64,000 bases of DNA. Origin: a virus. Lineage: Duplodnaviria > Heunggongvirae > Uroviricota > Caudoviricetes. Each line of letters opens with the position of its first letter. Position 1 is the stretch's first letter. This document shows positions 30,139 to 32,823 of this stretch, piece by piece. The position numbers and the translations under genes are program-made. Location of the stretch: IMG/VR virus record IMGVR_UViG_2795385584_000001, positions 21,334 through 85,333 of that record; one strand, written 5' to 3'. The notes beneath the pieces were generated by a model that had not been told where the DNA came from, made no database searches, and worked only from the letters and a program-made list of their open reading frames with translations.

Positions 30139-30681
30139 CTACTTCTGGATCTCCGTGCAGACGGTGAACTGGCGCACCGGGTGCGCGTATCCGGTGCACA
30201 TGTCGCCTTTGGTGGTGTTAAGCACGAGTCTGGTGGCACGGAATCTGCGTGGCGCGGTCGCATCGTCACATGCCACGGCACGGGTGGCTTCGTTGGTGAT
30301 GCTCAGGCAATTCGAGCTGGTCCAGTACAGGTCCAAGCATGCGGTCCATTCACCGGCGGCAGTGTTGCGGTAGTAGCGCCGGTCGACGTCCCGCACGCAG
30401 TCCTTAGGCTCCACGACCCGTTGCACGATGCGATGCGTGGCATCCGCAGAGTCACATTTAGTGAGCACCATAGCGGCGTCGTTGCGCTTGCCGATGATCT
30501 TGACGCATGCACGCACTGGGGCGTCTTCTTCGCCTGCTGCTGTTGTGGTTGCAGGGTCAGGGAACTGTCCGGGGATCTGCGCGTAATTCGGTCCAGTCTC
30601 CGCAGGCGGAGGACTTTGACACCCCAACAGAGCCATCATGGCCGTCAGGAACCTCACCGCTAAGGCGGCTGGTCTTCTCAC
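30139..30681 (-). CDS. putative lipoprotein
   Basis: Signal peptide VRRPAALAVRFLTAMMALLGC with lipobox LLGC; Cys-containing mature domain. Confidence 0.45.
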   Translation of the reverse strand: MRRPAALAVRFLTAMMALLGCQSPPPAETGPNYAQIPGQFPDPATTTAAGEEDAPVRACVKIIGKRNDAAMVLTKCDSADATHRIVQRVVEPKDCVRDVDRRYYRNTAAGEWTACLDLYWTSSNCLSITNEATRAVACDDATAPRRFRATRLVLNTTKGDMCTGYAHPVRQFTVCTEIQK

Positions 30682-31184
30682 CGCTCGTCGCCGATGTATC
30701 GGTCGACGCTCATGACTTTCCACTTCCCGCCAGTGCGGTACATGTTGTATCGAACCCGCGCCCCTGGAGAGAAATAGATATCCTCGGGCTTTGGATTCTT
30801 TTGGTCTTCGTATTCCGTGTAGACGTACGCAACATAGACCAGATCTCCTCGCGCAAGAATGCTGAAATCGTGAATATGCATCGGGCCGTGTTTCTCAATT
30901 TGGTACGCCATTTTCCGGACGTAGCCTGCCCTGGCTTGAGGATTGAGCTCTTCCTCTGCAAGCCCAGTTGACAAAGATTCGATTTGCTTAAGGTCGCCCG
31001 AGTTCAGGGCATCAATGTACTGCTCGACTACTGAGCGGACCTCTGCGTCATATTTGTCTGATTTGTCGCTGGGATGTTGCATGCACAGAACGTATGTCAG
31101 CAGGGAGGCAACTGCAATAGTTGCGACCCAGGCCACCGCGACTGCAATTCCACGTCGACTGATCCCGTCCCGAAAGGAAGCCAT
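30678..31184 (-). CDS. single-pass membrane protein (candidate immunity/partner)
   Basis: TM IAVAVAWVATIAVASLLTYVL; visibly lower GC, AAA/TTT-rich codons. Confidence 0.4.
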   Translation of the reverse strand: MASFRDGISRRGIAVAVAWVATIAVASLLTYVLCMQHPSDKSDKYDAEVRSVVEQYIDALNSGDLKQIESLSTGLAEEELNPQARAGYVRKMAYQIEKHGPMHIHDFSILARGDLVYVAYVYTEYEDQKNPKPEDIYFSPGARVRYNMYRTGGKWKVMSVDRYIGDER

Positions 31185-32665
31185 CACGCTCCTGTCACCA
31201 CCCCGTTCGCGAGGCACTGCGTGGTCTTTGACCACGGCACCTGCTGCCAGAACCCTTGCACGAACTCTGTTGCCTGGAAGTTCTCCTTGAAGCGATTCGA
31301 TTGACCACCGATAGACCAGTTCAAGCTCTTGTCCATAGGAATCACGTCGCGGTCATCGTCTTCGGTGCCCATCCACGTAAGGTCTGGGATATGCCCAGGA
31401 GCCTTATCCTTGAATGCGTCGGCTCCATATCTAAGTATCGCCCTGGCCTTATCGGCATCTTTGCGGCCCTGCATGCCCTTAGTTGAACGTTTAATCACTA
31501 TTCCGCCCAACCGTTTGTTTCTCTCGATTAGGTCGTTGCCGCCTTTAATGTAGTCTTGCAGACCTTTTTTGGTAAATTCTGAAGGATTAACTATATCTCT
31601 TGGCAGGCAGATAGCCACCTTACCCATGCAGTTCGGCTTGCCGACGTCGCATTTATCCTCAAAGTTCTCCATCCAGTCATCGATGAAGCCCTCGCATACT
31701 TGCTTGGCTGCGGCGTTAGGTATGGCTTTGCATAGGGGATTCTGCGGCTGCCGATCAGGTGGGCAATCCCCACACTCCAGTGGTTCGACAGGTAGGCGGC
31801 CAGGAGAGCGCTCACCGTCGGGACCTAGAGATCCACCGCCTCCCTTGGGGAGCACGATCTCAGCGGCATCTCCGATCTGCTGAGCCACGTCAGCGACCTG
31901 TCCGGCGGTCTGGGTGACCTGGTCCATCTGCTGCGACATCGCCTGGCAGCGCTGCTGGCGCTGTTGGTCTCCCTGATCCTGCTGGGACTGGTCTTCCTGC
32001 TGCTGTTGTTGCTGCTCAGGTTGCTCGGGTTGCTGAGTCTGTGAGGGCGCCTGGCTCGGCTGCTGCTGCCCCTGCTGGGGCGAATGTTGACCTTGCTGGG
32101 GTGAATTCTGTTGCGGTGCCTGATAATCAGGGTTCGGCTTGCCTGGCCCCTGCGTGTAACCGGGTGCGGTGGAGTAGTTAGGGGGCTGGGTGCCGTGCGC
32201 CGGTTGGTCCCAACCTTGTTGCGGTTGCTGTGCACCTTGCTGCCCGCCAGCTTGTTGCCCGGCCTGTGGCGCGCCGGAATTGTAAATTGAGATACCTGAG
32301 TTCTGATCTAGGGGCGGTAAGTTGTTCCCGCCCTGGTAGTCCGGCATAGACGGCGGTTGTCCGGGAGGTTGGAATTGAGAACCACCTCCGTCAGTCATTC
32401 CACCAGTCGGTCCGGGCGGCCCAGTCGGCTCGGCTCCGACGGTGGCAAGGGTCGAGAACCCACTGCCTGGCGGGATGTGATCGTCGATGACTCTCGTGCC
32501 GCCAAAAGCGACGGCAACGATAGCAACCACAATCAGCGCACGCCGTAGCCTTGCGGGCGCCTTCGGTTCGCCCCGCCGAGCCCCGGCAGGGAATTGCAGG
32601 TCGCGGCACCACATGGCGGTTGACTTGAGGTGCTCGTCGCGGTCTCGGTCCGACATAGTAAACAC
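31184..32665 (-). CDS. membrane-anchored protein with long Gln/Pro-rich linker and Cys-rich C-terminal domain
   Basis: TM LIVVAIVAVAFG; very long Q/P low-complexity tract; about 10 Cys in the C-terminal ~230 aa; low-GC codon usage. Confidence 0.5.
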   Translation of the reverse strand: MFTMSDRDRDEHLKSTAMWCRDLQFPAGARRGEPKAPARLRRALIVVAIVAVAFGGTRVIDDHIPPGSGFSTLATVGAEPTGPPGPTGGMTDGGGSQFQPPGQPPSMPDYQGGNNLPPLDQNSGISIYNSGAPQAGQQAGGQQGAQQPQQGWDQPAHGTQPPNYSTAPGYTQGPGKPNPDYQAPQQNSPQQGQHSPQQGQQQPSQAPSQTQQPEQPEQQQQQQEDQSQQDQGDQQRQQRCQAMSQQMDQVTQTAGQVADVAQQIGDAAEIVLPKGGGGSLGPDGERSPGRLPVEPLECGDCPPDRQPQNPLCKAIPNAAAKQVCEGFIDDWMENFEDKCDVGKPNCMGKVAICLPRDIVNPSEFTKKGLQDYIKGGNDLIERNKRLGGIVIKRSTKGMQGRKDADKARAILRYGADAFKDKAPGHIPDLTWMGTEDDDRDVIPMDKSLNWSIGGQSNRFKENFQATEFVQGFWQQVPWSKTTQCLANGVVTGA

Positions 32666-32823
32666 GGTAAACCATTACTACCGGGTATGAAACCCGGTGT
32701 GGAAAACCTTCTGATGCAGCCTTAAGGGGCGCCACGGCCGTGCTGACCGATGGATCTTGTAGTTGCGGGGTAGGGCTGACAGATACGCGTCGCACCTCTC
32801 ATCCCCTAGACCGCAACTCGGAG

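Follow-up and report, generated by a model that had tools for sequence, protein, structure and literature searches.

The only phage-borne toxin cassettes so far described in Mycobacteroides abscessus are those named PEST, in which a prophage encodes an ESX-secreted toxin together with its immunity protein and a WXG100 protein (PMC8092301, PMC10654092). Polymorphic toxins that do not use a type VII secretion system (T7SS) are represented by the S8-PTS, Sec-dependent toxins of the Bacillales and of some Actinobacteria, M. abscessus included, with a three-component layout (PMC9424270). Among nuclease toxins, the pairing of Tox-NucA with Imm-NTF2 makes NTF2-fold immunity known for the GH-type HNH/EndoVII class (Zhang et al. 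2012, PMC3482391). Toxin use between mycobacteria was first demonstrated in 2026, and solely for a T7SS effector (PMC13444075). Here we analyze a stretch of 64,000 nucleotides (IMG/VR record IMGVR_UViG_2795385584_000001, positions 21,334 to 85,333), hereafter the window, and within it three adjacent genes that we call A, B and C. We think it fairly probable that they constitute a phage-borne, non-ESX polymorphic nuclease toxin (A), its immunity protein (B) and an accessory lipoprotein (C). A first-pass annotation, made from the letters of the window, had compared this layout both with polymorphic toxin/immunity cassettes and with superinfection-exclusion cassettes. The former comparison is supported by the homology of the end of A to toxin domains, by some 27 classes of alternative C-terminal domains, or heads, in the family of A, and by the linkage of B to one type of head (15 of 15 loci, against 0 of 35 with other heads); the latter found no positive support and no match in PADLOC.

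The window comes from a prophage of Mycobacterium (Mycobacteroides) abscessus of the MabK type. It is 91-95% identical to prophiGD43A-5 (MW584167) over near its full length, in reverse orientation, and the junction of prophage and host lies near 62.6 kb, adjoining tRNA-Arg and tRNA-Ser. As the first-pass annotation had it, three genes stand in a row; they are co-directional and lie on the minus strand. Gene A (31184..32665, minus) is an open reading frame (ORF) of 493 amino acids from a GTG codon, with 95% nucleotide identity to gene 63 of prophiGD43A-5; an alternative start at ATG 32656 gives a protein beginning with MSDRD, the one used by its UniRef homologue P0035. For gene B (30678..31187, minus; longest ORF 30678-31235) homology supports a start at GTG 31187 or ATG 31184, that is, a product of 168-169 amino acids, and for gene C (30139..30681, minus; longest ORF 30139-30723) a start at GTG 30681 and a product of 180 amino acids. 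The stop codon of A (TGA, 31184-31186) shares a GTGA overlap with the start of B, and that of B (TGA, 30678-30680) shares another with the start of C; the three genes are therefore translationally coupled. They are the counterparts of genes 63-65 of the 118 of prophiGD43A-5, each annotated there as "hypothetical protein", and all three fall within PHROG families of unknown function (PHROG 30921 in the case of A). According to the annotation of prophiGD43A-5, the cassette lies mid-genome, among co-directional early lytic genes, and is not att-proximal.

The product of A is built as the first-pass annotation described it, with 493 residues, an N-terminal transmembrane anchor, a long Gln/Pro spacer and a Cys-rich C-terminal part, the last ~196 residues of which contain 8 Cys. 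The anchor, ALIVVAIVAVAFGGTRVI (residues 43-60; 32486..32539, minus), was located by a Kyte-Doolittle scan and is preceded by a basic tail (..ARLRR); from the positive-inside rule it is predicted to be a signal anchor with the N-terminus inside and the C-terminus outside. A twin-arginine (Tat) signal, considered on account of the conserved RR before the transmembrane segment, was dropped, as several members of the family have R-x-R at this place. The spacer (31877..32476, minus) is a low-complexity region of ~200 amino acids rich in Q (28%), P (14%) and G (14%) that holds the short conserved motifs PGSGFST, PPLDQNSGISIYN and GPGKPNPDYQ, and it belongs to the N-terminal module, or N-module, of a family of Mycobacteroides proteins. 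A search with residues 1-304 of A as the query for this N-module retrieved 197 protein clusters, among them gp50 of phage McProf, whose named sources are nearly all Mycobacteroides (abscessus, chelonae, franklinii, salmoniphilum and saopaulense). The relatives have the transmembrane anchor and the spacer motifs in common and diverge abruptly beyond them. Single-linkage clustering distributed 103 of the 197 proteins into ~27 classes of C-terminal domains, seven of which carry a Pfam name: Amidase_2, prokaryotic phospholipase A2 (PLA2), DUF2599, GH19, an M10/reprolysin-like metalloprotease, DUF6973 and Ntox33 (E 3e-28), the last of which is a recognized polymorphic-toxin domain. The family thus displays the conserved N-terminal part joined to many alternative C-terminal domains by which polymorphic toxin systems are known (Zhang et al. 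2012).

At the junction of the conserved N-module and the variable domain, A carries a C-x-x-C motif, CGDC (residues 298-301; 31763..31774, minus). A C-x(1-3)-C pair is found at the equivalent junction in 81 of the 103 family members, across domain classes, 72-148 residues after the GPGKPNPDYQ anchor, and we regard it as a candidate demarcation or processing motif. The copy of prophage prophiT48-1 is closely similar, in its upstream region and N-terminal coding part, to a gene of a chromosomal island that ends in an unrelated C-terminal domain, a similarity that suggests recombination within the gene. Many copies of the N-module reside in non-phage islands of this kind. In the islands of M. 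abscessus, a small conserved HTH_58 gene (PF19575) is found ~230 bp upstream of the N-module toxin genes (L010 5538-5771, L012 5522-5770, L013 347-595) and is possibly a dedicated regulator; the phage copies are without it.

The nuclease-type toxin core of A extends over residues 349-475 (31241..31621, minus) and contains a putative catalytic signature in two parts, G424-H425-I-P-D428 (31382-31396, minus) and L-N449-W-S-I-G-G-Q (31301-31324, minus). A phmmer search with residues 289-493 against 1.8 billion representative sequences yielded 34 relatives, in almost all of which the domain is at or near the C-terminus. Among the N-termini of these relatives are RHS repeats (P0031), WXG100 plus the pre-toxin domain PT-TG (P0034) and DUF4280/PAAR-like domains (P0024, P0028), modules by which polymorphic toxins are typically delivered; the domain is hence common to toxins that leave the cell by other export routes. 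We accordingly read this part of A as a nuclease-type toxin domain that also closes proteins of the Rhs, WXG100/PT-TG and PAAR-like kinds. Other searches were less productive. The domain gave just a chance-level match, to ywiB, in a sequence search of the PDB, and no relative in a word-indexed protein search, where the index appears to miss the domain; in the same database an N-terminal query recovered a full-length protein 97% identical to A (P0035). A scan of genome contigs with the single protein was dominated by poly-Q patterns and returned 3 loci. In a plasmid collection, neither the domain nor the MspA-linked locus described below found a match.

Across 28 sequences, which follow the pattern G-H-x-P-D-x-x-W-x-G ... 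(L/M)-D-x-x-L-N-x-S-I-G-G-Q, the domain has five invariant residues (H, P, D, W and N). An AlphaFold2 (AF2) model built from the domain alignment (predicted local distance difference test, pLDDT, 85; predicted template modeling score, pTM, 0.81) places, in its own numbering, a strand at 94-98 with G96-H97, a second strand at 112-116 and a helix at 118-128 with N121. With the His at the end of a strand and the Asn at the start of a helix, the predicted fold has the beta-beta-alpha-metal (His-Me finger) layout. Foldseek found no match to this model in the PDB and retrieved no Ntox15 structure; the best solved structural match of the domain is NucB (6% identity, no Pfam hit), in which 23 residues separate the general base from the metal-binding Asn (PMC5758888), as compared with 24 between their putative equivalents in A. 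The stretch HxPD...NSSIGxQ aligns with the catalytic region of Ntox15 (the HNPD of PDB 8fzz) at a profile E of 2.1. The Pfam model of Ntox15, PF15604, gave sub-threshold matches in 3 of the 28 relatives, with a best E of 0.0011; for P0002 the match covered 40 residues with 18.1 bits, below the gathering threshold of 22.5. The HxxD motif of that family is therefore present in A as H425-I-P-D428, invariant in the 28 homologues, while the Pfam threshold is not reached. The Mg-dependent deoxyribonuclease (DNase) activity of Ntox15 requires both the H and the D of the motif (PMC10470768, PMC13556189). Because of the arrangement in the AF2 model and the alignment of the motif, we describe the C-terminal domain of A as a putative His-Me-finger-like nuclease toxin with an Ntox15-like signature, which stays below the threshold of every curated family.

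Gene B, directly after A, is the small single-pass membrane protein that had been recognized at first reading. It has one transmembrane segment (residues 16-34; 31086-31142) followed by a probably NTF2-like ectodomain. The closest named family is Rv0361_Cterm of NCBIfam (6.5e-8, 32.9 bits, cut-off 37). Weak matches were obtained to NTF2-clan models of Pfam, namely DUF4440 (E 1.4e-3 over the whole model), SnoaL_2, DUF4864 and CaMKII_AD, and a profile of B compared with the PDB returned almost exclusively proteins of the NTF2 fold, with a weak best E of 1e-3. No match to Imm-NTF2 or Imm-NTF2-2 of Pfam was seen at E<=1. Homologues of B occur in all 15 prophage loci with the nuclease-type domain and in none of the 35 loci with other C-terminal domains, so that, by linkage, the gene that overlaps the stop codon of A is specific to the type of C-terminal domain. 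The same pairing of toxin and B, accompanied by C in some cases and not in others, is seen in the non-phage loci L005, L009, L017 and L018. The identities of B and of the toxin domain move together (96/96, 89/89, 70/70 and 43/41%), and that of the N-module stays at 77-97%. Moreover, one IMG/VR prophage possesses a second B-type gene downstream of C (L030 4471-5025) that is 66% identical to B of the window, as compared with 38% for its own cognate B, and this extra copy looks like an orphan immunity gene. We propose B as the candidate cognate immunity protein of the nuclease domain, in line with the precedent of Imm-NTF2.

A different function for the same pair of proteins would be that of a surface-tethered or released extracellular DNase that acts on biofilm DNA, neutrophil traps or lysate, with B as an inhibitor of the Nin or NuiA kind until release. 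Prophage-encoded secreted DNases are virulence factors in Streptococcus pyogenes, prediction puts the toxin domain and that of B outside the cytoplasm, and the cassette is found among lytic genes. NucB, the best solved structural match, is itself a secreted, biofilm-dispersing DNase, and its paralogue NucA has the adjacent gene of a presumed inhibitor, Nin (PMC5758888). Nevertheless, we hold this explanation to be rather unlikely, since the N-module of A also carries some 27 unrelated classes of domains, Ntox33, a peptidoglycan amidase and PLA2 among them, each with its own downstream gene; nuclease homologues are mounted on Rhs, WXG100 and PAAR-like delivery modules, and one locus keeps an orphan B-type gene. 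Varied heads, toxin delivery modules and an orphan partner are hallmarks of antagonism and not of a housekeeping exoenzyme.

The cassette is mobile between phages. It was found in prophages of three clusters, MabK (the window and prophiGD43A-5), MabQ (prophi79-1) and MabL (prophiT46-2, T48-1 and T36-1). In a blastn comparison with prophiT37-1, a sister prophage of the MabK cluster, similarity ends at 29688 and resumes at 33433, with flanks ~93% identical, such that the segment 29689..33432 is unlike its counterpart. Apart from A, B and C, the swapped segment contains small flanking ORFs at 29699-30103, 32824-33011 and 33009-33449. At the equivalent slot, prophiT37-1 has four genes instead (L016 4748-8938): one for a 444-amino-acid secreted accessory protein, homologous to one that stands beside an MspA-like gene in L005; one for a 461-amino-acid toxin-like protein with a transmembrane segment, a P/Q-rich region, another C-terminal domain and a C-terminal transmembrane segment; and, by Pfam, one for a DUF5642 lipoprotein and one for an immunity-type protein of the SMI1_KNR4 (SUKH) family. 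SUKH is a classical immunity family of nuclease toxins, and as prophiT37-1 thus holds another toxin/SUKH cassette at this site, we consider it a slot for alternative toxin cassettes. The horizontal acquisition put forward in the first-pass annotation agrees well with the presence of the cassette in three prophage clusters and of a different one in the same slot of prophiT37-1. As to the neighbors, the 134-amino-acid ORF at 29699-30103 (minus), a homologue of gene 66 of prophiGD43A-5, lies 35 nucleotides downstream of C and has no family match; in L014/L015, a partial homologue (44% over 62 amino acids) is the neighbor of a further toxin gene of this family.

We also considered that the N-module proteins are envelope-anchored enzymes that serve the envelope of their own cell, in wall remodeling, as a lysis aid or in nutrient scavenging, and that the downstream genes encode their chaperones or regulators. 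Several heads are indeed hydrolases of cell wall or lipid (Amidase_2, GH19 and PLA2), all the partners are envelope proteins, and an accessory to lysis could well be expected to stand among lytic genes. An extreme C-terminal polymorphism on a single N-module with sharp recombination breakpoints is, however, difficult to accommodate in such a role, as are bona fide toxin domains such as Ntox33 and a nuclease common to Rhs and WXG100 toxins, a partner gene tied to the type of C-terminal domain, and the SUKH gene that prophiT37-1 has in its alternative cassette. We give this explanation little credence.

The third gene, C, encodes the lipoprotein that had been noticed at first by its lipobox, LLGC, at residues 18-21 (30619-30630). 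It belongs to the LppU/SCO3897 family, with 31.7 bits to NCBIfam NF049863 (cut-off 25). To the lipo_LppU equivalog model it scores 82.7 bits (3e-23), under the cut-off of 135, and it is accordingly a family member and not an orthologue of LppU. Eight Cys are invariant in the alignment of C. The protein is predicted to be all-beta (pLDDT 87 for the best of five models, which vary widely), and a structure search found no solved relative. For the linkage of C we took a census of 52 prophage contigs of IMG/VR with a C homologue, two of which are cut by the contig end; in all 50 assessable contigs an N-module toxin gene is located 1-2 kb upstream. In the islands, toxins with PLA2, GH19 and unknown heads are likewise followed by a C-type gene or domain, the gene in between being a different one for each head. 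C therefore goes with the toxin family as a whole, as its conserved accessory, and is not peculiar to the cassette of the window.

Two non-phage relatives of the cassette (L005 2953-6965 and L008/L009 3103-7372) are arranged in another manner. There, the nuclease toxin gene is preceded by a gene for an MspA-like porin (PF09203) and also by one for a secreted protein of 271/429 amino acids with a Cys-rich tail, and it is followed by an NTF2-like gene, with or without an LppU-like gene. The porin as a neighbor may hint at passage of the toxin through the mycomembrane. By tblastn, the window has no MspA-like gene and no gene for the accessory secreted protein, and the link to a porin is limited to the more distant relatives.

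The base composition of the locus sets the toxin domain and B apart. The lowest-GC stretch of 1100 nucleotides in the 64 kb is located at 30651..31750 (0.528 vs 0.647, standard deviation 0.025, z -4.8). By part, the C-terminal domain of A (0.528) and B (0.530) are low, and the N-terminal part of A (0.639) and C (0.615) are near the average of the window. The low GC that the first-pass annotation had assigned to the whole of 30.1-32.7 kb consequently stands for the C-terminal domain of A plus B and not for the N-terminal part of A or C. GC at third codon positions is 0.60-0.65 for the parts of A and for B, vs 0.78 +/- 0.07 across 74 ORFs. The reported shift toward AAA, TTT and ATA codons was recovered in the C-terminal domain of A and B relative to 15 reference genes, in all cases from small counts: AAA makes up 48% of Lys codons vs 12%, TTT 27% of Phe codons vs 7%, and ATA 18% of Ile codons vs 7%.

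Upstream of A, a hairpin and a promoter-like gap of 158 bp had been indicated. Both exist, and no role as hairpin or promoter could be supported for them. The gap spans 32666-32823, and prophiGD43A-5 has a 45-amino-acid ORF annotated in the equivalent gap; a consensus scan detected no sigma-70-like promoter in it. The hairpin, CCGGGTatgaaACCCGG (32681..32697), has a 6-bp stem, occurs once in the window and lies 16 nucleotides upstream of the GTG of A. No T-run follows it, and its stem is not conserved in the copies of prophi79-1 and prophiT46-2, so it is not among the parts to which we assign a function. A lone terminator-like match from a scan overlaps the start codon of A and is not credible.

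Taking these elements together, we infer the following mode of action for the toxin/immunity cassette. A would be held in the plasma membrane by its single N-terminal signal-anchor helix, and the disordered Gln/Pro/Gly spacer of ~200 amino acids, long enough to cross the periplasm and the cell wall, would present the disulfide-rich C-terminal domain outside. This domain would act as a metal-dependent DNase of the His-Me-finger type, with His425 as the predicted general base and Asp428 and Asn449 as the predicted metal site. B, in the same membrane and with its putative NTF2-like domain facing the same way, would bind and neutralize the cognate nuclease domain and render the lysogen immune. C might be a common accessory in the maturation of the toxin, its release or its passage through the envelope. 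The benefit to the phage would be that lysogens or induced cells harm competing Mycobacteroides that are not lysogens and lack B.

Several points weigh against this proposal. That A is toxic and a DNase, and that B protects from it, are predictions, and A of the window matches no toxin model of Pfam (it has no Pfam hit, and none to Ntox15 even at E<=10). The target of a DNase is in the cytoplasm, yet the predictions place the toxin domain and the immunity domain alike outside the membrane, and we know of no import route across the mycobacterial envelope. The B homologue of L005 is without the transmembrane segment. Within the nuclease class, the identity of C correlates with that of the toxin domain as well as that of B does (r 0.95 for both); B is therefore distinguished by presence and absence, and not by covariation on its own. 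Finally, prophiGD43A-5 is mostly silent in lysogens outside the ESX toxin locus (RNA-seq of Dedrick et al. 2021, PMC8092301), and this silence, together with the setting among early lytic genes, makes constitutive production in the lysogen doubtful and leaves the first-pass label of a moron, taken to mean expression in the lysogen, unsupported. Given the same two facts, the toxin may be produced upon induction and set free by lysis in the manner of a colicin, rather than constitutively.

Expression bears as well on the superinfection exclusion that had been suggested at first, in which a membrane nuclease and its partners would block or destroy the DNA of incoming phages at the envelope. Small membrane proteins and lipoproteins are frequent among the exclusion proteins of prophages, and here the three products all belong to the envelope, one of them has a nuclease domain, and the genes are borne by a prophage. 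None of A, B and C, however, has a match among the defense systems of PADLOC at E<=1; amidase, PLA2, GH19 and protease heads in the family would make no sense in the exclusion of DNA; many copies are in islands that are not phages; and the published silence of prophiGD43A-5 (PMC8092301) leaves expression during lysogeny unsupported. Exclusion or another form of anti-phage defense is, in our opinion, very improbable.

A broader idea, speculative and in our estimate somewhat doubtful, can be built on the polymorphic toxin reading: Mycobacteroides and their prophages may possess an undescribed, ESX-independent system of toxin delivery consisting of an anchored carrier, a Gln/Pro tether, a CxxC junction, at least ~27 heads and an obligatory LppU-like lipoprotein. 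The tether would thread the toxin through wall and mycomembrane in a contact-dependent inhibition, and phages would trade the cassettes at fixed slots. Some relatives of this proposed system also have the MspA-like porin and the secreted accessory protein.

Two further elements were observed elsewhere in the window. A gene for a Ro-like RNA-binding protein (35884-37599, minus) is accompanied, upstream on the same strand (37898-38350, minus), by YrlA matches and tRNA-like elements. The three YrlA (Y RNA-like) matches are sub-threshold, with 37.6, 28.9 and 28.5 bits vs a gathering score of 69, and a tRNA-Thr(tgt) called by ARAGORN at 38272-38350 overlaps the best of them; gene and elements are probably a Ro/Y-RNA module of the phage. 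At ~39.1-39.6 kb, homology to genes 49-50 of prophiGD43A-5 points to a BrnT-like toxin/antitoxin pair, opposite in direction to the surrounding early genes.

We found no description of the family of carriers with a transmembrane anchor and a P/Q-rich spacer, of the CxxC junction, of the LppU-type accessory, of the function of LppU or of McProf gp50 in the searchable literature, papers on M. abscessus prophages included. If the toxin reading is right, functions would be gained for three PHROG families of unknown function and for the uncharacterized LppU/SCO3897 and Rv0361 families, which have members in M. tuberculosis, and it would become a concrete question by what means a protein toxin passes the mycomembrane in the absence of ESX. 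M. abscessus is a hard-to-treat pathogen, the strain diversity of which is largely driven by prophages. The same reading would then also matter when lysogens and phages are chosen for therapy, since temperate phages that carry toxins alter the competition between strains. The nuclease toxin domain, unmodeled and present across several phyla, merits the definition of a family.

Each of the known systems resembles the cassette in part. The nuclease family Ntox15 with its representative pair Tde1-Tdi1 (PF15604; PMC4096383, PMC10470768, PMC13556189) has the H-x-P-D motif followed by G and by ..(I/L)N-S-S-I-G-x-Q, a C-terminal toxin domain that is used over several secretion routes, and a Mg-dependent DNase chemistry that would be expected for A too. 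The likeness of A, however, is confined to ~40 residues and stays below the Pfam threshold; Tde1 has been described as predominantly alpha-helical, in contrast to the alpha+beta model with a beta-beta-alpha core predicted for A; and B is probably NTF2-like, and not a Tdi (GAD-like/DUF1851) or SUKH protein. NucB and the NucA-Nin pair of Bacillus (PF14040; PMC5758888) share with A and B the scaffold of a small, disulfide-containing, extracytoplasmic, non-specific DNase and the adjacent presumed inhibitor. They differ in that the general base of NucB is Glu94, the domain of A keeping the canonical Gly-His, in that B is unrelated to Nin, and in that the domain of A is one of many interchangeable heads on a polymorphic carrier. 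Tox-NucA with Imm-NTF2 (PMC3482391) is similar in the combination of a GH...N-type nuclease toxin of the HNH/EndoVII fold with an NTF2-fold immunity protein, but A and B reach none of the Pfam models concerned, and B, a membrane-anchored protein, has its nearest family in the mycobacterial Rv0361 proteins.

The carrier invites other comparisons. CpnT-IFT of M. tuberculosis and CdiA-CdiI have a long carrier that presents its C-terminal toxin at the outer membrane or farther out, an adjacent immunity gene and a demarcation motif; CpnT forms its own channel in the outer membrane and is ESX-dependent, and CdiA uses the transporter CdiB. The CxxC of A would correspond to their demarcation motif by position only. 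There is no sequence relationship, and the carrier of A consists of a plasma-membrane anchor and a disordered spacer with a lipoprotein as partner. The S8-PTS are alike as three-component, Sec-type toxins outside the T7SS, but the cassette of the window lacks what they rely on: the signal peptide, the BetaH domain and the partner S8 peptidase. The closest in organization are the PEST loci, which are likewise three-gene toxin cassettes of M. abscessus prophages with a conserved N-terminal part, variable C-terminal toxins, an immunity gene directly downstream and exchange between clusters. PEST, however, is att-proximal and expressed in the lysogen, whereas the cassette described here is mid-genome, its three products are without a WXG100 match, A starts with a transmembrane anchor and a Q/P-rich spacer, and the third gene is LppU-like. 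With no WXG100 domain or partner, and not being att-proximal, it is not a PEST/ESX cassette, and if our interpretation is correct, it would represent a second, Sec/transmembrane-anchored family of polymorphic toxins with an accessory lipoprotein of its own, widening the known armoury.

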